From Dehalococcoidia bacterium (GTDB taxonomy: Bacteria; Chloroflexota; Dehalococcoidia; Plut-88900), in contig CBDFLQ010000005.1 in assembly GCA_965249275.1 (NCBI GenBank), positions 352,001 to 416,000 of the forward strand: a DNA stretch of 64,000 nucleotides, written 5' to 3'. Of this stretch, positions 23,304 to 34,800 are shown in pieces; position 1 is the first letter of the stretch, and each line of letters starts with the position of its first letter. The position numbers and the translations under genes are program-made. The notes under the pieces were generated by a model. The model was not told where the DNA came from. It did no database searches and worked only from the letters and a program-made list of their open reading frames with translations.

Positions 23304-24344
23304 ATGACGACGGAAAAGACAAAGGCCCTGGATTTGGCCCTTGGGCAGATTGAAAAGCAGTTTGGACAGGGGTCTATCATGCGGCTGGGGGACGCCCGCA
23401 GCGGCATGGAGGTCGAGGCGATACCAACGGGATCCCTGGGTCTCGACATTGCCCTCGGGATCGGGGGGGTGCCCAAGGGGCGGATCTGCGAGGTATTCGG
23501 CGCGGAGTCGGCAGGGAAGTCTACTCTCGGTCAGCACCTGATGGCCCAGTCACAGGCCTCGGGCGGCATGGCGGCCTATATCGACGCCGAGCATGCTATG
23601 GACCCGTCCTACGCCGCCAAGTGCGGCATCATTGTCGACGAGCTCCTCATCTCACAGCCCGACACCGGTGAACAGGCCCTGGAAATCGCCGAGGCCCTGA
23701 TTCGCTCTAACGCGGTGGACATTGTCGTGGTGGACTCGGTGGCGGCGCTGGTGCCGAGGGCGGAGATAGAGGGGGAGATGGGCGACACGCACGTCGGGCT
23801 GCAGGCTCGGCTGATGTCGCAGGCGCTACGAAAGCTTACCGCCGCCACGAGCCGCTCGAATTGCGCCGTGGTCTTCATCAACCAGCTTCGGGAGAAGGTC
23901 GGGGTCATGTTCGGGAGCCCGGAGGTGACGCCGGGGGGTCGGGCGCTGAAGTTCTATAGCTCGGTGCGGATAGACCTGCGGCGGATTGAGTCGATAAAGC
24001 ATCAATCGGCGATAGTCGGGAACCGGGTGCGGGCCAAGGTGGTGAAGAACAAGGTGGCGGCGCCCTTCCGGGTGGCGGAGTTCGACATCATGTTCAATGA
24101 GGGGATCAGCCGGGTAGCCGACCTGGTGGACCTGGGCGTGCTGTACGGGATACTCAAAAAAAGCGGGGCATTTTACTCGTGGGACGGGACTCGGCTGGGG
24201 CAGGGTCGGGAGAACTCGAAGGACTTTCTCAGGGAAAACAAGTCTATGGCTTTATCCCTCGAGAACCTCATCCGGGAGGCTGCGGAGTTGCCCTTGCTAC
24301 CAGTGCCGGCGTCGGTGAATGGGGCGGAGGGGGAGATGTTTTAG
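23304..24344 (+). CDS. recA: Recombinase RecA
   Basis: [41 protein letters not shown]. Confidence 0.99.
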
Positions 24345-26295: not shown

Positions 26296-26574
26296 ATGAT
26301 TCAAAACTTCACTGATCGAGAATCGAGAAAATTCTTCGAGGGCTTTCGATTCAGGGCCTTCCAAGACTCTGAGTATCATGCATATCACAGGTTGACGATC
26401 TTGGACAATGCAGCTTTCCTGCGAGACTTGGCAGCTTTACGCAGCAATAAACTGGAGTCACTCTCCGGCATTCGGGAGGGACAATTCAGCATATGGGTCA
26501 ATCGAAAGTGGCGAATCTGTTTCCGTTGGGGAGATGAAGGGCCCTATGCAGTGGAAATAGTGGACTACCATTGA
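26296..26574 (+). CDS. higB: HigB toxin, second copy
   Basis: SNKLESLSGIREGQFSIWVNRKWRICFRW...VEIVDYH. Confidence 0.9.
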   Translation: MIQNFTDRESRKFFEGFRFRAFQDSEYHAYHRLTILDNAAFLRDLAALRSNKLESLSGIREGQFSIWVNRKWRICFRWGDEGPYAVEIVDYH

Positions 26575-26587
26575 AGAGGTTTCTGGA

Positions 26588-26920
26588 ATGAGCATGACCA
26601 TATCGAACCGTATGCGGCCCGTGCATCCGGGCGAGATTCTCAAGGAGGAGCTACAGGAGATAGGCATGTCCGCCAACGCCTTGGCCAAGGCTCTTTGGGT
26701 TCCCGCCAACCGCATCACCTCAATACTCAATGGCAGCCGAGCTGTGACCGCCGACACCTCTCTCCGACTCTCCCGTTACCTGGGCACGAGCCCCGAATTC
26801 TGGCTGAATCTCCAGAAAACGTTCGAACTGCGCACCGCTCAAATTGCGTCGGAAATGCGCATCAACACGATGATCCAGCCACGCCAAGAAAGTCCGTTAC
26901 CTACAGCTTCCTCAGATTAG
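26588..26920 (+). CDS. higA: HigA antitoxin, second copy
   Basis: MRPVHPGEILKEE...RAVTADTSLRL...PEFWLNLQ. Confidence 0.92.
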   Translation: MSMTISNRMRPVHPGEILKEELQEIGMSANALAKALWVPANRITSILNGSRAVTADTSLRLSRYLGTSPEFWLNLQKTFELRTAQIASEMRINTMIQPRQESPLPTASSD

Positions 26921-26927
26921 CTCTCCA

Positions 26928-27566
26928 ATGCCCCAGATCACCGATATCCGAGCCCAGAAAAACCGGCGGGACCGAGTCAACGTGTTTATTGATGGGCGCT
27001 ATGCCTTCGCGCTGGACCAGATATCCATGTTCGACGCCCGACTCGAGATCGGACAGGATGTTTCGGAGGAACGTCTTGAAGAGCTAGTCGACAAGGCGGG
27101 GCTTGACTCTGCAATGTCGGTGGCGCTCCGATATCTCACCACTCGGCCCCGGAGTGAACGCGAGCTGCGTGACCGGCTCCGGCGTCGGCAGATTGGAGAG
27201 GTGGTTATAGACCGCACAGTGGAGCAGCTTAGGGCTAAGGGGCTGCTCGACGACTTCACATTCGCACAGTATTGGGTCGACCAGCGGGTAACTTTCAGGC
27301 CTCGCAGCCGGAGGATGCTGGAGATGGAACTGAGGCAGAAGGGTGTCGACGGCGAGGCCATAGAGGGCGTGACCCTGGACATGGACGATGAGGCTGAGGC
27401 CTACCGGGCCGCTCAGCGAAGGGCCCGCTCGCTGCCCGCCGATGACTTCGACGCCTTCTTCAAGAAGCTTGTCGCTCATTTGAAGCGTCGTGGGTTTGGG
27501 TATGGCACGGCTGCGAAGACTGCGAGGGGGTTGTGGGCAGAGGTGACCTCCTCGGGGGAGTGCTGA
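26928..27566 (+). CDS. recX: Regulatory protein RecX
   Basis: RVNVFIDG.YAF, RPRSERELRDRL, LLDDFTFA, ELRQKGV, LKRRGFGY. Confidence 0.92.
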   Translation: MPQITDIRAQKNRRDRVNVFIDGRYAFALDQISMFDARLEIGQDVSEERLEELVDKAGLDSAMSVALRYLTTRPRSERELRDRLRRRQIGEVVIDRTVEQLRAKGLLDDFTFAQYWVDQRVTFRPRSRRMLEMELRQKGVDGEAIEGVTLDMDDEAEAYRAAQRRARSLPADDFDAFFKKLVAHLKRRGFGYGTAAKTARGLWAEVTSSGEC

Positions 27567-29546: not shown

Positions 29547-30104
29547 ATGCTTGCCTTGAACATGACAAATGCCGACCAATCCTTTATCCGAAGGATGTAC
29601 ACCGCCGACAACCTACCTGTCTTGCAACGACTCCCCGACGCATCAGTCGACCTCATCTACCTGGACCCGCCCTTCAATTCCAACCGGGACTACGCTGCGC
29701 CTATAACGGTTAAGAACCCCAAGACCGGCAAGCGGGAAAAGCACCTGGCCGAGTTCAAGGACACTTGGACTTTCACTGATGACGACGCCGAGTGGTTATA
29801 TGTTATTAGGTCTGACTATCCCACCGTCTATGCAGTGATCGAGTCAGTCAAAACAGCCCACAGCTTCCGCATGGCGGGCTACTTGTGCATGATGGCTGTC
29901 CGGTTACTCGAAATGCAACGCATTCTCAAGCATAGCGGGGCGATATATCTACACTGCGATCCTACCGCATCTCACTATCTGAAACTGCTCATGGACACAG
30001 TATTCGGCCCGTCAAACTTCAAGGCTGACATTACTTGGAGGCGAACTAGCAGCCATAACGACGTAAGGCGGAATTACGGTGCATTGGGAGACAACTTATT
30101 CTTT
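29547..30104 (+). pseudogene. 5' fragment of a DNA methyltransferase-HNH gene interrupted by the IS1595 element
   Basis: VDLIYLDPPFNS, IYLHCDPTASHYLK; joins in frame to 33913 when the element and one TSD are removed (DNLFF|YTKSTNF...MPYSKEH). Confidence 0.9.
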
Positions 30105-30152
30105 GGGAATTATATACAATAAGGCATCAGGAATTGGCCTGATAAACCATAC

Positions 30153-30554
30153 CTATCGTGGACGACGGCCCAACGTCGAGGTTGTGTGACCTGTTGCCGT
30201 GTTATTTTCCGCCGACCACTCCCAATTTCGGGTCAACTCTTTCAGCCATTGGGCACCTTCGGCAGCATCAAAATCACTCGCACCGCAATCGGGCCAATTG
30301 GGGCGACCAGAATAGTTCATCTTCACTCCCTGCGCCGATGCAATGAACCAGACCGAATCAGCGTCTGTTCGCTCCTTAGAATTATCACGACCCCATTCAA
30401 CGTACATTGAAAAGGGAGACACATTTACATTCGTCGGCCAAACAAAATCGTTCGGAAGATGCTCCAACAGCGCCTCCAGCGCCTGCGTCATCTGATGCAT
30501 GCTGTCTACCACCCCGTACATGGACCCGCATCCCGAAGAACCTTCAATCGTCAT
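30153..30554 (-). CDS. Hypothetical protein (transposon cargo)
   Basis: 133-aa ORF with AAGGAG RBS upstream of ATG; no recognised motif. Confidence 0.6.
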   Translation of the reverse strand: MTIEGSSGCGSMYGVVDSMHQMTQALEALLEHLPNDFVWPTNVNVSPFSMYVEWGRDNSKERTDADSVWFIASAQGVKMNYSGRPNWPDCGASDFDAAEGAQWLKELTRNWEWSAENNTATGHTTSTLGRRPR

Positions 30555-30658
30555 AATACTCCTTGCTTACGAACATCTTAGCTATCCAACTGTCTCTTTT
30601 TCCCGCGTCTCGCCGTAGGTCTTTACTACTCTCTCGGGGTTTGAGAACGTGGGTTGGT

Positions 30659-30747
30659 GGGTAAGTGCCGGAACCGGCAGACGGGCTATCCTGCCAAGAT
30701 AGTGGCCCTTCGTGGTCGTAGGGGTTCGATCCCCCTCTTACCCACCA
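30659..30747 (+). tRNA. Class II tRNA with Leu-type body and GCC (Gly) anticodon
   Basis: Acceptor GGGTAAG/CTTACCC + A73 + CCA; D arm CCG-GAACCGGCAGA-CGG; anticodon arm CTATC-CTGCCAA-GATAG; long variable arm; T arm AGGGG-TTCGATC-CCCCT. Confidence 0.9.
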
Positions 30748-30757
30748 ACCCCTCTAA

Positions 30758-30985
30758 TTATCCTCGAGGCGGGAAGGGATCGTTGCCGTAGCTGTCCTTC
30801 TCCCTGATCTTCCCGTCCTTGCCATGTAAGTAATACTCGGCGTCATGGTTTCGAGCAACCTGCCGGCCGTAAGAATCTGCCTCGGCCTGGGTATCGAAGG
30901 ACTTCGTAATCCTCGATGCTCCGCCCTTCCGCACAGCCCACTTATCCCCATAGGGAACGGTGTGTTGAGTTTCTTTGCGTGCCAT
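30758..30985 (-). CDS. DUF2188-family small protein
   Basis: QHTVPYGDKWAVRKGGASRIT..FDTQAEA...LHGKDGKIREKDSYGNDPFPPRG. Confidence 0.8.
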   Translation of the reverse strand: MARKETQHTVPYGDKWAVRKGGASRITKSFDTQAEADSYGRQVARNHDAEYYLHGKDGKIREKDSYGNDPFPPRG

Positions 30986-31002
30986 TACATTACCTCTGTT
31001 AT

Positions 31003-31152
31003 CTAAGGTGCTACCTCTTTATGGTCCTTCCCGTCGTCCTGCTCCTCACCCTTCTTGGGATTCGGCCCCTTCACCACCGCCCGTAGCACATCCTCAAACG
31101 TGTCGGGTATGTGGAGCCTCTCAAACGGGCTTCTGTCTTCGCTCTTTTTCAT
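31003..31152 (-). CDS. Small hypothetical protein (LHIPDTFEDVLRAVVK type)
   Basis: 49-aa ORF co-oriented with the transposase and DUF2188 gene. Confidence 0.5.
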   Translation of the reverse strand: MKKSEDRSPFERLHIPDTFEDVLRAVVKGPNPKKGEEQDDGKDHKEVAP

Positions 31153-31322
31153 CTTATATAGATTATACCCCCACTTGCCTGAGATTGAAACACCTGTGCG
31201 GTATGGCACTATAGAAACTAAGGGGGGGTAAGTAGACGGTAGACTTTACCCTCCCTACCTGTTGATAATTCCAATATAGAAGAAAGCCTTGGAGGTTAAT
31301 CACATCTCCAAGACTCTCATCA

Positions 31323-31411
31323 GCCGTAGTGGTGGAACTGGTAGACACGCCCGGCTTGCACCCGGGTGGACTAATCGTCCGTGCAGGGTTCGAATCCCGC
31401 CTACGGCACCA
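31323..31411 (+). tRNA. Class II tRNA with Leu-type body and TGC (Ala) anticodon
   Basis: Acceptor GCCGTAG/CTACGGC + A73 + CCA; Leu-like GTGGTGGAACTGGTAGACACGC; anticodon arm CCCGG-CTTGCAC-CCGGG; variable arm GGAC-TAATC-GTCC; T arm with one bulged A; no G3:U70. Confidence 0.9.
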
Positions 31412-31501
31412 CTCTTCTTGATCCCTATTTTCATTATAAACACCTCTTCACCTTCCTGTAAATTCGTTGACGTCTACCCCCTGTGGGTGTACCTTGTCCC
31501 C

Positions 31502-31592
31502 GCTTAGGTAGTCTACCCGTACGCTGAACGTTATTTGGGCATGGGGCCGCTCATGCCCCCTTGCCAGTGAAACGGGCCAGGACTGCCTAAGC
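31502..31592 (+). ncRNA. Putative long-hairpin RNA or leader behind its own promoter
   Basis: GCTTAGGTAGTC/GACTGCCTAAGC, CCCGT/ACGGG and GGGCATG/CATGCCC nested stems; TTGACG-17nt-TACCTT at ~31468-31496. Confidence 0.45.
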
Positions 31593-31627
31593 AACGGTCA
31601 CCAGCCTAGCTGCAAGGGGGTTCCAAT

Positions 31628-32173
31628 ATGACAAAAAGCCGAATCGGGTTTTGGCTACTCATCTCTCTAATCCCTATGGGATTACTCACCTTCCTCGGAT
31701 TCATCATAAGCATTGTTCTATTCATAGGGTCCAGTAGTGATGAACCAGAGGGAGCCGAAATAGCATGTACCTTTGTCTTCTTTGCTTCGCTCTTCTACTG
31801 GTGGGGTGCTCTCTTCACCGGCATCGGATTGAAGATATTGTCCAGGCGGGAAAATCAGCAGATGTTTGCTCAAGCTCAGCGATACGCCGAGGTACACGGA
31901 TGGCAACCCATCTCGCAGTCCGCATGGAGAGCACTTAAAGCAGACAGAGCTTCCCTTGCTGTAAGTCGAAGCATTCAGGGGACGATGTATACCCTCACTA
32001 TCGCATCAGGAGTGAACACCACCACTGTCACTAACTTCGCTACACCTCTATGGGCACTACAATTTGGTGACTGGTTATGGGAGAGAACGGGGGGCGAAAA
32101 CATCACCCCAGAGACAGCACAGGCTCAACGGCAAGAATGGTCTCAGAACTTGGCAATCATTCCCACCGTCTAG
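31628..32173 (+). CDS. Hypothetical membrane protein (two N-terminal TM helices; transposon cargo)
   Basis: 181-aa ORF with two hydrophobic segments and AAGGGGG RBS. Confidence 0.7.
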   Translation: MTKSRIGFWLLISLIPMGLLTFLGFIISIVLFIGSSSDEPEGAEIACTFVFFASLFYWWGALFTGIGLKILSRRENQQMFAQAQRYAEVHGWQPISQSAWRALKADRASLAVSRSIQGTMYTLTIASGVNTTTVTNFATPLWALQFGDWLWERTGGENITPETAQAQRQEWSQNLAIIPTV

Positions 32174-32188
32174 CCATCCATACGGTAA

Positions 32189-33106
32189 CTACACATTGGT
32201 AATTAAGTCGTCGTAGGTTAGTCGCTTGCCGTGCGTTCCCTTGATCAACCTCTTCATCTGGTCAAGGGTATCCATGGGCCGGTCGTTGTGCCGCCCAGCG
32301 AACTCGGTGGCATAGCGGCTCAAGTGTTTGGGAGAGACATGGTGGTAAGTACCCATAATCCCCCGCTTGAGCATGGCCCAGTGGCTCTCGATGCTGTTGG
32401 TCGTAACCTCACCCCTAACGTACTCCCCGGTGGCATGATCAACCGCTTCGTGCTTCAAGGGAATACCCCTGTAGGAGAGGTGTCCATCACTGTGCAAGGT
32501 AGCGTCCGGTTCAACGTTGTCGAGAACGAATCCTTGGAGAATGGGTTTCTTCGTAGAGGGAAGCACCTCGGCCTTGATCTGATTAGTTGGCTTATCCAAG
32601 AGCCCCGCCACGATGGCCTTACCTTTAGGCCCTCTCCCCATGCCTCTCCACTTCCCGCCAACGTAGGTCTCATCCACCTCGACAGGCCCTCCGAAGAGTC
32701 CCTGCTCTGACTCCCACGCCTTCCGTATCCTGTGCGCCAAGTGCCAAGCTGATTTTTGGGTAATGTTGAGGTCCCGATGCAATTTCATCGAGGAAACGCC
32801 CTTGAGGTTCGTGGTCATGAGGTAAATGGCGATACCCCACTTGGAGAGAGGAAGGTTGGAACCGTGCATGACGGTGCCAGTTTTGACGGAAAATTCCAGC
32901 TGGCAGTAGGTGCAGTGTAAGGGCTTTACCTTGCGGTTGGGGCGACGGGTGATCTCCATGCCGCCACAGCGGGGGCATGATATACCGCTGGGCCAACGAG
33001 ACTCGATGAATAACTGCTCAGCCTTTTCCTCGGTGGAGAATAATTTAGTGACCTCCAGAAGGGACAAACCCTTCCGATAATGCTTACCTGGGGCGTTCCG
33101 TGCCAT
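32189..33106 (-). CDS. IS1595-family transposase
   Basis: Zn ribbon CPRC...CTYC, KGVSSMKLHRDL, VEVDETYVGG, HSDG, TNSIESHW, HLSRY; start placed at MARNAPG after a TTTACA-17nt-TATAAT promoter. Confidence 0.95.
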   Translation of the reverse strand: MARNAPGKHYRKGLSLLEVTKLFSTEEKAEQLFIESRWPSGISCPRCGGMEITRRPNRKVKPLHCTYCQLEFSVKTGTVMHGSNLPLSKWGIAIYLMTTNLKGVSSMKLHRDLNITQKSAWHLAHRIRKAWESEQGLFGGPVEVDETYVGGKWRGMGRGPKGKAIVAGLLDKPTNQIKAEVLPSTKKPILQGFVLDNVEPDATLHSDGHLSYRGIPLKHEAVDHATGEYVRGEVTTNSIESHWAMLKRGIMGTYHHVSPKHLSRYATEFAGRHNDRPMDTLDQMKRLIKGTHGKRLTYDDLITNV

Positions 33107-33220
33107 GCGCTGATCTCCTACTTCGGCTATCCTTGTTGACATAACTATTATAACACATCTCCTAATTTGTGTAAACAATGCCCAAGCAATGGAGAAAACA
33201 TGGAAAATACTGCTAAAACT

Positions 33221-33250
33221 TGGACACAATTTCAGTGGAAATAGTATCAT
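33221..33250 (+). promoter_or_regulatory. Putative sigma70 promoter for the structured-RNA array
   Basis: TGGACA-18nt-TATCAT immediately upstream of the first structured unit, divergent from the transposase promoter. Confidence 0.5.
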
Positions 33251-33256
33251 ACGGAG

Positions 33257-33410
33257 GGCAGGGTACGCAAGGAATTTATGGCACCAGGAGGCACCAATGG
33301 TCCCCTATCGGGGAATGAAACTCAGCCGGCTCCACTTTGAATAGACGTTCTGCAAAAACGTCGTGGGGTTGGCTACAAGAAGGACATTTTAGACCCTTGC
33401 ATACCCTGCC
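33257..33410 (+). ncRNA. Structured RNA unit 1, with an anticodon-like stem-loop (GCA)
   Basis: Closing stem GGCAGGGTAcGCAAGG/CCTTGCaTACCCTGCC; inner AGCCGGCTCCAC/GTGGGGTTGGCT; hairpin GACGTT-CTGCAAA-AACGTC. Confidence 0.6.
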
Positions 33411-33419
33411 AATACAACG

Positions 33420-33516
33420 TGAGAGGACATGCCTGTTGGTGCAGGCCAGAATTTGCCAAACTCTTGAGAACGTTGGCATATCCAACGTTGCGGTTCGATT
33501 CCGATCCTCTCCGCCA
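33420..33516 (+). tRNA. Irregular (9/3-like, allo-tRNA-like) tRNA with GCC anticodon and G73
   Basis: GAGAGGA/TCCTCTC acceptor core ending GCCA; D arm GCCTG-TTGGTG-CAGGC; AGAAT-TTGCCAA-ACTCT; long extra arm AACGTTGG/CCAACGTT; 3-bp T stem CGG-TTCGATT-CCG. Confidence 0.7.
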
Positions 33517-33542
33517 TCAAATAATTTGTATTATCATATAGA

Positions 33543-33660
33543 TGAGGGGAGTAGTGGTAATCCGGTAGACTCTCGATGTTCCCAACATCGGCATTGCTTA
33601 GGTAGTGTGTGTCAGACGCTGGCACAGAGTTTTTACAGAGGAACCATCTACTCTCCTTCA
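33543..33660 (+). ncRNA. tRNA-like unit with CCC anticodon loop and no canonical T arm
   Basis: TGAGGGGAGTAGTGGT/ACCATCTACTCTCCTTCA stem; Leu-like GGTAGAC; CGATG-TTCCCAA-CATCG; extra arms GCATTGC/GTAGTGT and GTGTCAG/CTGGCAC. Confidence 0.55.
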
Positions 33661-33673
33661 AGATTATACATGT

Positions 33674-33743
33674 CGCAGTCCCTGGCTGTGTGACAGGAAC
33701 GCCTTGGTACCAGCGTTGGGCTTTCAACCTGACTGCGCCTCCA
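33674..33743 (+). ncRNA. Small cloverleaf-like unit
   Basis: CGCAGTC/GACTGCG acceptor-like stem followed by CCTCCA; arms CCTG/CAGG, AACGC/GCGTT and GGG-CTTTCAA-CCT. Confidence 0.4.
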
Positions 33744-33760
33744 TATCTCCTCAATTTGAA

Positions 33761-33874
33761 TGGGAAACAAGATGGACGACCAGACATATGTCACTGTTGG
33801 AGGTTTGGCAAGACCTCCTTGATGAATTAGCGCTCGTGTTCAGCGTCGCTTCATATCTGGTCGTCCATCTCCCA
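33761..33874 (+). ncRNA. Structured RNA unit with long closing stem and TTGGCAA loop
   Basis: AGATGGACGACCAGA/TCTGGTCGTCCATCT 15-bp stem ending CCCA; inner GGAGGT-TTGGCAAG-ACCTCC. Confidence 0.5.
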
Positions 33875-33912
33875 CTGCTTGATGCCTTATTGTATATAAT
33901 TCCCTATTCTTT

Positions 33913-34800
33913 TATACGAAGAGCACTAATTTCATATTTAATACTCAATACATGCCTTACTCCAAAGAGCACATGGAGAAATTTTACTCCCACATCGATA
34001 AAGACGGCAGAAAGTACAGCACTGACAATTTGAGAAGCCCTGCACCCAGACCTAATTTGACTTACGAGTACAAGGGATACAAACCTCACCCCAATGGGTG
34101 GACAGTGTCACTTGAGAGAATGAAGCGACTCGACGCAGAGGGGCGTCTTCATTTTCCGAAAAAGAAGGACGGTCGAATCCGCATAAAGAAATTCCTTGAT
34201 GAAATGCCCGGCGTGCCTATGGGCAATATATGGGATGACATCAGACCTATCTCATCTCACTCTGAAGAACGCCTAGGCTACCCTACCCAGAAACCCTTGG
34301 CCCTGCTAGAACGCGTAATTAGGGCATCCACCAACGAGGGCGATCTAGTTTTGGACCCCTTTGCGGGTTGCGCCACGGCCTGTGTCGCAGCGGAGAAACT
34401 GAAACGGCAGTGGATCGGCATTGACGTGAGCGACCTTGCAGTCAAGCACGTCTTGGAGCGCATCCAGGATGGTTACAACCAGGGCGACTTCCCGGATATC
34501 CTTGAAACAGGGTTCCATCCCGACAAGGTGGATCACTTAGTTATCAGTGGGGAGGCACGCGCCCCGCGCTACCAAGACCGCAAGCCGGAGCTATACGTAC
34601 ACCAGAACGGCAGGTGTGCGGGCTGCCACCTCGAACTCCCGGAGCGCCTTCTGGCCGTGGACCATATTAAGCCGAGATCCAAGGGGGGCGCCGACGCTAT
34701 CGAAAACCTTCAACTCCTCTGCACTGACTGCAACTCCCGCAAAGGCAACCGGGACATGAAATACCTGTTGGAGTCCCTAAAGAGGGACGGAATAATTTAG
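33913..34800 (+). pseudogene. 3' fragment of the DNA methyltransferase with C-terminal HNH nuclease domain
   Basis: GYPTQKPLALLERVI, VLDPFAGCAT (motif I), CAGC...VDHIKPRSKGG...NLQLLCTDCNSRKG; internal ATG at 33952. Confidence 0.9.

Follow-up and report, generated by a model that had tools for sequence, protein, structure and literature searches.

A leucine-type tRNA with an alanine anticodon carried by an IS1595-family transposon in a Dehalococcoidia bacterium

A 64,000-nucleotide (nt) stretch of the genome of a Dehalococcoidia bacterium (contig CBDFLQ010000005.1, positions 352,001 to 416,000), hereafter the window, contains a tRNA gene at 31323..31411 (+) that combines a leucine-like body and a long variable arm with the anticodon UGC. 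This 89-nt sequence is a true tRNA gene from a widespread and structurally conserved family, whose members are of the tRNA-Leu type and have anticodons for the codons of other amino acids. Family tRNAs are carried as cargo by transposons of the IS1595 type (and of the IS1 type) and are found in phage contigs as well. In the window, one intact-looking IS1595 element, inserted in a methylase gene, brought three mismatched tRNAs into the host. On the reading favored here, which is held at about even probability, the UGC tRNA would be a leucine-type tRNA of this transposon-borne family that is charged by leucyl-tRNA synthetase (LeuRS) and reads GCA and GCG as leucine at a low level, this copy being likely weakened.

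ARAGORN identifies two 89-nt tRNAs in the window, at 30659-30747 (+, gcc) and 31323-31411 (+, tgc), and Rfam RF00005 recognizes positions 31323-31408 as a tRNA with 47.2 bits, above the gathering score of 29. The acceptor stem of the UGC tRNA (GCCGTAG/CTACGGC) forms seven of seven Watson–Crick pairs without any G:U pair; position 3:70 is C:G (31325:31405), and position 4:69 is G:C. The discriminator base A73 at 31408 is followed by an encoded CCA (31409-31411). The D stem (GTG/CAC) pairs at all three positions and closes an 11-nt loop region. The anticodon stem contains 5 base pairs (bp) around the loop CTTGCAC (T33 and A37), in which the anticodon TGC occupies 31357..31359 (+) and is placed by ARAGORN at position 35. 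The variable region of 16 nt forms its own stem (GGAC/GTCC) and is longer than that of the host Leu tRNAs. By comparison with five host Leu tRNAs, the tertiary core is leucine-like, with T8, A14, G18G19 and T54-T55-C56, and the D loop is as long as in those tRNAs. The T arm (GC-A-GGG TTCGAAT CCCGC) is irregular and contains five pairs plus an extra A or, when read in register, pairs at 3/5 positions. The extra A occupies 31385..31385 (+), within the T stem's 5' strand, for which the family consensus reads GCGGG.

These features agree with an earlier note made from the sequence of the window, which had described a leucine-type 5' segment, a long variable arm, A73-CCA, the anticodon TGC, a C:G pair at 3:70 in place of the alanyl-tRNA synthetase (AlaRS) determinant G3:U70 and a single extra A in the T stem. 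The note had taken the gene for an Ala-to-Leu mistranslator, a reading that is supported in its structural part. The D arm is equal in length to that of the host tRNA-Leu(GAG), and two D-loop bases differ. The extra A is reproduced in independently assembled contigs, apparently from the same sample and at a depth of 3-5, which show no difference in the UGC tRNA. A 220-nt contig from a second study's run is identical over 30539-30752 and was not counted as independent. When the two tRNAs are folded as single sequences, the cloverleaf is not the minimum-energy structure, and the z-scores (-1.1 and -1.4) are weak. A minimum-energy fold that misses the cloverleaf is usual for tRNAs, and this result was given no weight.

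The host genome (2.9 Mb in 7 contigs, 59% G+C) contains 44 tRNA genes as well as tmRNA. Among the tRNAs are short-arm canonical tRNA-Ala(UGC) and tRNA-Gly(GCC), with Leu represented by five genes, Ser by four and Tyr by one. Given the canonical Ala(UGC) and Gly(GCC) tRNAs, the two long-arm genes in the window are therefore extras. The UGC tRNA is 74% identical to the host tRNA-Leu(GAG) and 57% identical to the host tRNA-Ala(UGC). An origin as a recent copy of a host tRNA-Leu was rejected, since the identity to Leu(GAG) is about the same as that to distant family members (74-77%). The anticodon TGC is neither of the leucine forms, NAG or YAA. Regarding alanine identity, the UGC tRNA contains the alanine anticodon and lacks G3:U70.

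Relatives of the UGC tRNA were collected with a pattern that specifies a Leu-type D arm, a long variable arm and a base other than A at position 35; the Ala/Gly version of the pattern uses the anticodon KSC. The window contains two sites, compared with 0.00 expected from 100 shuffles. In IMG/VR contigs, the pattern occurs in 84 viral stretches, which correspond to 64 distinct sequences. Seven of seven acceptor pairs are formed in 38 of the 64, and 23 of those 38 contain A73. The anticodons of the viral set belong to Gly, Ala, Pro, Thr, Trp and Asp, and each of the three stop codons is represented as well. The Ala/Gly pattern occurs in at least 120 metagenome stretches. From the matches listed, 80 loci were sampled and yielded 74 distinct matches, with one contig-edge match dropped; 55 of the 74 are well-formed, as defined by at least 6/7 acceptor pairs and at least 4/5 anticodon-stem pairs. 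The sample was selected by pattern.

Among the well-formed metagenome members listed, A37 is found in 55/55, A73 in 50/55, a fully paired T stem (5/5) in 54/55 and a fully paired D stem (3/3) in 53/55. The anticodon loop is TTGCCAA in 14 members and YTTGCAA/C in 19. Position 3:70 is C:G in 29, G:C in 23, U:G in 2 and A:U in 1, and G3:U70 is absent from all 55, including the 27 with an Ala anticodon. In an alignment of 58 sequences, made up of the 55 metagenome members, the UGC and GCC genes of the window and a single viral gene, the share of paired cells is 97.1%, compared with 62% after shuffling and 42-46% when the partners are slid. Both sides change in 18 of the 20 pairs, with a covariation score of 0.89 versus 0.20. 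Pairing reaches 98.9% in the D stem and 98.6% in the T stem, neither of which entered the filter. The family members are tRNAs under structural selection. Covariation across homologs, which the earlier note had named as a check on its proposal, is strong in this alignment. The same note had held that leucine anticodons in all homologs would refute the proposal; those of the relatives are Ala, Gly and other non-Leu ones.

The family data also bear on the explanation that the UGC tRNA is an odd but true alanine tRNA, which is charged with alanine and decodes GCA correctly. The UGC anticodon, A37 and A73, which it shares with the host tRNA-Ala(UGC), are consistent with this explanation. However, the UGC tRNA has C:G at 3:70 and G:C at 4:69, and AlaRS is described as depending on G3:U70 above all other elements (PMC5389517). 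G3:U70 is missing from all 27 well-formed relatives with an Ala anticodon, the body of the UGC tRNA is of the Leu type with a long variable arm, and canonical Ala tRNAs for UGC, GGC and CGC are already encoded by the host. A true alanine tRNA is considered very improbable.

The family is linked to transposons. The recurrent neighbors of family tRNAs are transposases, a helix-turn-helix (HTH) protein and a protein of ~205 amino acids (aa) without a family match. A transposase profile detects an IS1595-type transposase in 11 of the 55 well-formed tRNA loci listed (240 kb), in none of 19 pattern matches that are not tRNAs (107 kb) and in 3 of 80 viral loci (786 kb). In the 2.9-Mb host genome, the profile has two matches, one of which is the element in the window. 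An IS1-like transposase is common to a cluster of five loci, four of which lie outside the 11 IS1595 loci. The fifth, L183, is the weakest of the 11; its IS1-like transposase, the one checked against Pfam, scores 30.3 bits. Many metagenome loci are too short to judge transposon linkage. In three loci (L155, L123 and L177), the tRNA is enclosed by the inverted repeats of the element; the L177 unit of ~2 kb consists of a repeat, a transposase, one 146-aa open reading frame (ORF), a tRNA(UCC) and a repeat. A search of viral contigs for transposases, blind to tRNAs, returned three loci, two of which have an 86-87-nt tRNA(UGC) upstream. Ten transposon-linked tRNA(UGC) genes have a mean identity of 76% (66-98%), and TTGCA is kept in all of them. 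The anticodon arm of the window UGC tRNA resembles those of the transposon-linked genes, with a compensated change at the loop-closing pair. Among the genome contigs, three loci contain close relatives of the transposase, and none of the three has a tRNA.

Several loci show further features around the family tRNAs. The conserved ~205-aa protein adjoins tRNA(UGC) in four loci (L141, L146, L155 and L182). In L177, the 146-aa ORF (1538-1978, -) begins 8 nt past the tRNA on the same strand and is a possible relative of the 205-aa protein. The mismatched-tRNA loci L130 and L168 also adjoin an N6/N4 DNA methylase of the kind that is interrupted in the window, and the L168 methylase is fused to an Mrr-like endonuclease domain. 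Two transposon-linked tRNA(UGC) genes, in L244 (420-506, -) and L245 (2505-2590, -), have the T loop TCCGA instead of TTCGA. This change is common to the two otherwise diverged copies, neither of which has an Rfam match at E values up to 0.01.

The viral contigs contain other long-arm tRNAs. In eleven viral loci (L044, L062, L071, L080, L111, L096, L052, L067, L097, L105 and L058), a Leu-type D loop and a long variable arm are combined with U1/G73 and the anticodon GTT (Asn) or TTG (Gln), with a leading G, C73 and the anticodon GTG (His), or with C1:G72/A73 and the anticodon TGG (Pro). These acceptor ends resemble what we take, from identity rules, to be the cognate identity of the anticodons, which suggests that the long-arm scaffold was reused for several amino acids in phage-contig tRNAs. 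The tRNAs of viral loci L099 and L110 have identical bodies and flanks and differ in the anticodon alone (AGC versus TCC). Viral locus L050 (2939-3027) encodes a long-arm tRNA with the anticodon GCC, G3:U70 and A73, which corresponds to alanine identity with a glycine anticodon.

The element in the window is an insertion of 3.8 kb (30105-33904) with a G+C content of about 0.51, compared with 0.59 around it. It is bounded by terminal inverted repeats of 33 nt at 30105..30137 (left, +) and 33872..33904 (right, -), which are 91% complementary, and by an 8-bp target-site duplication TATTCTTT at 30097..30104 and 33905..33912. The transposase gene (32189..33142, -; the open frame reaches 33250) encodes an IS1595-family DDE transposase, with a Pfam DDE_Tnp_IS1595 match of 106 bits, a zinc ribbon and an NCBIfam NF033547 match of 170.7 bits (cut-off 75). 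The transposase, the inverted repeats and the 8-bp duplication together identify an IS1595-family transposon. A duplication of 8 bp is typical of the IS1595 family, some subgroups of which carry passenger genes. The insertion target is an N6/N4 DNA methylase-HNH gene, which is split into a 5' half (29547..30122, +; positions 1-94 of the 221-position Pfam N6_N4_Mtase profile) and a 3' half (33952..34800, +; profile positions 132-216, plus HNH). No further copy of the element was found in the host genome, in which it is single-copy. The joints that the contig comparison reports within the inverted repeats have short sides of about 21 letters.

Besides the tRNAs, the element carries four passenger genes. 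A 133-aa ORF (30153..30554, -) has no Pfam, NCBIfam or PADLOC match. The DUF2188 protein (30758..30985, -) matches Pfam PF09954 with 75 bits and the PADLOC candidate PDC-S16. A 68-aa ORF (31003..31209, -) is conserved in a related element of a genome of the same genus (G002; 73% DNA identity). A predicted membrane protein of 181 aa (31628..32173, +) has homologues in the same-genus genomes G002 (52%), G001 (51%) and G234 (44%) and no family match in Pfam or NCBIfam. No homologues of these four proteins were found in the 55 metagenome and 80 viral loci, and the inverted-repeat pattern of the element has no match in metagenomes. A promoter-like site for the transposase is found at 33175-33147. 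Promoter and terminator scans are near chance (5 found versus 3.1 expected) and serve as pointers only. Just downstream of the UGC tRNA, a sigma-70-like promoter match (11/12) at 31433-31462 (-) runs antisense through the tRNA toward the 68-aa and DUF2188 genes.

The element encodes two additional tRNAs. The first (30659..30747, +) is also Leu-like with a long variable arm and contains the anticodon GCC, A73-CCA and a regular T stem. Its best Rfam match is only tRNA-Sec, with 27.4 bits. The GCC and UGC tRNAs are 69% identical and both fold as cloverleaves. The view of the earlier note that two anticodon-swapped genes are separately maintained in one element is right; a third, degenerate tRNA is also present there. 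The GCC tRNA carries G1:C72, G3:C70, C35 and C36, which presumably might permit partial recognition by a dimeric glycyl-tRNA synthetase (GlyRS). The host GlyRS is of the dimeric type, and the GCC tRNA has A73 where the host tRNA-Gly has U73. The third tRNA-like gene (33420..33516, +), located 170 nt upstream of the divergent transposase gene, was detected by a sensitive Rfam scan. Its tRNA-Sec score of 34.6 bits is below the gathering score of 47, and ARAGORN missed it. It has a tRNA-Sec/allo-tRNA-like form with the anticodon GCC: the D stem of 6 bp ends in a loop of 4 nt, the anticodon loop is TTGCCAA, the variable arm has 8 bp, the T stem has 3 bp and the 3' end reads GCCA. Its anticodon stem is weak, and its first pair is mismatched. 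From its sequence, the third tRNA looks like a worn allo-tRNA.

Among close relatives, the mismatched tRNAs are exceptional. Of the 21 close relatives, the pattern with a base other than A at position 35 occurs in this genome and in G007, a genome of the same genus. In G007, a tandem copy of tRNA-Leu(CAA), located ~770 nt from the original (G007:C1:225183-225243, +), reads CCA (Trp) at its anticodon and is apparently a duplicated chromosomal gene whose anticodon recently changed by one base. The A35 version of the pattern finds 1-5 ordinary Leu tRNAs in 21/21 relatives, and the pattern is therefore sensitive in these genomes. The mismatched tRNAs arrived in the host with the transposon. A decayed cousin of the element exists in G002. 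Its repeat end is similar, the genes for the 68-aa and membrane proteins are present, and the transposase is reduced to its tail. The cousin's tRNA (L015, 9009-9104, -; G002:C1), 96 nt in length, is serine-like (G73) with the Leu anticodon UAA, a mirror-image mismatch. No tRNA was found near the membrane-protein homologues in G001 and G234, and the membrane protein is therefore not tied to the tRNAs. The second host match to the transposase profile lies outside the window (G000:C5:103118-103330) and is a C-terminal IS1595 remnant of 70 residues, ~200 nt from a canonical tRNA cluster (Val-Arg-Leu-Val). Its position may be a clue to the way in which such elements encounter tRNA genes.

LeuRS recognition requires A73, the tertiary core and the way in which the variable arm is oriented, and not the anticodon (PMC2377443). 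The host has one LeuRS, of the bacterial type, and the element encodes no synthetase. From the sequence, we infer LeuRS charging and Ala-to-Leu decoding by the UGC tRNA. The host's single LeuRS, indifferent to the anticodon, would charge the UGC tRNA with leucine, and AlaRS would be unable to charge it because G3:U70 is missing. On the ribosome, Leu-tRNA(UGC) would compete with the canonical tRNA-Ala(UGC) for GCA/GCG and read them as leucine, and the outcome would be Ala-to-Leu missense decoding at a low level. The sibling GCC tRNA would likewise insert leucine at GGC/GGU. The part of the T stem that holds the extra A is the region contacted by EF-Tu. The insertion probably lowers the delivery or stability of the UGC tRNA, and this copy is likely a weakened member of the family.

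Several observations weigh against decoding by the UGC tRNA. The extra A in the T stem is atypical, as seen from the 5/5 pairing in 54 of the 55 listed relatives and from a consensus that lacks it. The codons GCA/GCG and GGC/GGU make up 40% of the Ala codons and 56% of the Gly codons in the host long ORFs; efficient decoding would therefore be very harmful, and any activity must be low or conditional. The host-phylum search found the mismatched-tRNA pattern in this genome alone (1/401). The search pattern itself fixes bases of the D, anticodon and T loops, and the filter on the acceptor and anticodon stems inflates the pairing figures of those two stems. A need of the transposases for Ala/Gly-to-Leu recoding was considered and rejected. 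The window transposase contains one GCA, and its GGC/GGT codons fall in conserved Gly columns. Across nine transposases from tRNA-bearing elements, Leu-dominated columns hold 1/113 of the codons that are cognate to the cargo tRNA, compared with 2/68 of the non-cognate codons of the same family. In addition, known mismatched tRNAs can be charged and yet be silent, as described for a nev-tRNA in vivo (PMC4300185) and for the G-1 tRNA1 and allo-tRNA(UAU) species (PMC5389517).

The silent precedents also favor an alternative in which the tRNA is made, and perhaps charged, for a non-translational use with little or no decoding. Examples of such a use are a decoy or sponge for toxins or nucleases that target tRNA-Ala/Gly, a regulator and an amino-acid donor. 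The published accounts report no detectable mistranslation in vivo for the nev-tRNAs (PMC4300185), translation inactivity for six allo-tRNA(UAU) variants and a charged, non-decoding state for the G-1 tRNA1 species (PMC5389517). A non-translational role would also avoid the high cost of leucine at 40-56% of the Ala/Gly codons. As would suit a decoy, the anticodon loops copy those of canonical Ala/Gly tRNAs (TTGCCAA in 14, YTTGCAA/C in 19 and A37 in 55/55 of those listed). The neighboring DUF2188 protein matches a candidate defense family. The altered T loop TCCGA in some clade members points in the same non-translational direction. However, a decoy would need neither A73, which is found in 50/55, nor a perfect 7-bp acceptor stem, nor the full core of the L shape. 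No toxin or nuclease gene common to the loci was found, and the passenger proteins of the element have no homologues in the other loci. A non-translational use is regarded as possible and rather doubtful.

The T-stem insertion can also be read as lethal to this copy. In this explanation, the UGC gene is an inactive, decaying hitch-hiker that was killed by the 1-nt insertion, and the family may still function. The T stem pairs at 3/5 in register, compared with 5/5 in nearly all relatives and a consensus T arm without the A. The third tRNA of the same element is degraded in its T stem (3 bp), its anticodon stem and its first pair; most of the transposase is gone from the related G002 element; and the element of the window is present once in its genome and is rare across the phylum. 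In contrast, apart from the extra A, all stems of the UGC tRNA are perfectly paired, the conserved core bases and CCA are intact, and five Watson–Crick pairs are left in the T stem when the A is bulged out. Natural tRNAs with one bulged nucleotide in the T arm are reported to be functional (PMC5389517). The element also looks recently active, with a perfect 8-bp duplication, inverted repeats that are 91% complementary, an open transposase frame and a good promoter-like site. A dead hitch-hiker is accordingly judged unlikely.

Low-level decoding by a LeuRS-charged tRNA remains the favored reading. A broader form of it is proposed tentatively: IS1595/IS1-type transposons and some phages may have adopted Leu-accepting mismatched tRNAs, with Ala, Gly and other anticodons, as a selected mobile mistranslation module, of which the UGC anticodon, retained throughout a diverged clade of transposons, would be the functional heart and not an accident. 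Such a module, if real, would make chosen sense codons ambiguous in any cell that it entered, and its use could be selfish or could lie in stress-triggered diversifying or poisoning of the proteome.

Upstream of the element, between recA (23304-24344) and recX (26928-27566), the window encodes a HigB-like toxin and an HTH antitoxin as a pair (26296-26920, +).

Natural tRNAs with mismatched identity and anticodon are rare and much discussed, and they test the strictness of the genetic code. The present data suggest that a leucine-type mismatched tRNA is common in environmental bacteria and phages, structurally selected and moved from genome to genome by simple transposons. Should the tRNAs prove to be both charged and used, ambiguity of sense codons would be a transferable trait, with a bearing on codon reassignment, on the effects of mobile elements on the host cell and on how recoded, 'firewalled' organisms are designed. 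Should they be charged and unused, they would point to a non-translational job for tRNA in transposon biology.

The carrier matches IS1595-family elements in its zinc-ribbon DDE transposase (NF033547), terminal inverted repeats and 8-bp duplication. A partial literature search, supplements excluded, found no report of tRNA genes as IS1595 cargo or as a recurrent passenger, nor of bacterial Leu-type tRNAs with Ala/Gly anticodons. In Streptomyces, the tRNA-ProX/ProRSx pair reportedly also has an anticodon mismatched with its identity, and it is thought to mistranslate deliberately; its tRNA is said to be of the Pro type with a short variable arm and to be served by a dedicated synthetase paralogue. 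This paralogue has no counterpart here, where the host has one LeuRS and the element has no synthetase.

Among known systems, the nev-tRNAs are closest to the UGC tRNA in working principle, and the allo-tRNAs are closest in setting. The nev-tRNAs are tRNA-Leu-derived nematode tRNAs with a long variable arm and the anticodons CCC (Gly) and UAU (Ile) (PMC3333845, PMC4300185). They are described as charged with leucine only, with GGG read as Leu in vitro (PMC3333845), and their genes are conserved, with mistranslation in vivo undetected (PMC4300185). The UGC tRNA shares with them its descent from tRNA-Leu and an anticodon that belongs to neither Leu nor Ser. It differs in that the nev-tRNAs, as far as these reports describe them, are nematode-specific, have other anticodons and are not presented as mobile cargo, whereas the genes described here are bacterial or phage-borne and are carried by IS1595/IS1-type transposons.

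The allo-tRNAs, or irregular tRNA polycistrons, are bacterial tRNAs with a long variable arm and many non-cognate anticodons (Mukai 2017, PMC5389517). The same report proposes that they are missense or nonsense suppressors or regulatory RNAs, places them near toxin-antitoxin systems and transposon-related genes and defines them by an 8/4 or 9/3 split of the acceptor and T stems, a D arm like that of tRNA-Sec and an identity that is either serine (G73) or alanine (G3:U70) (PMC5389517). The UGC tRNA differs from this definition in its 7/5 layout with an extra base, in which an eighth acceptor pair would be T:C, and in its Leu-type 3-bp D stem and A73, without the Sec-like long D stem and tetraloop. 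The main text of PMC5389517 describes neither Leu-type members nor IS1595 cargo, and its supplements might hold related sequences. The likeness to the allo-tRNAs lies in the mismatch of anticodon and identity beside a mobile element and, for the third tRNA of the element (33420-33516), in an allo/Sec-like long D stem and short T stem. The UGC tRNA is a real variant of the known mismatched tRNAs, the nev-tRNAs and allo-tRNAs, on a new vehicle.

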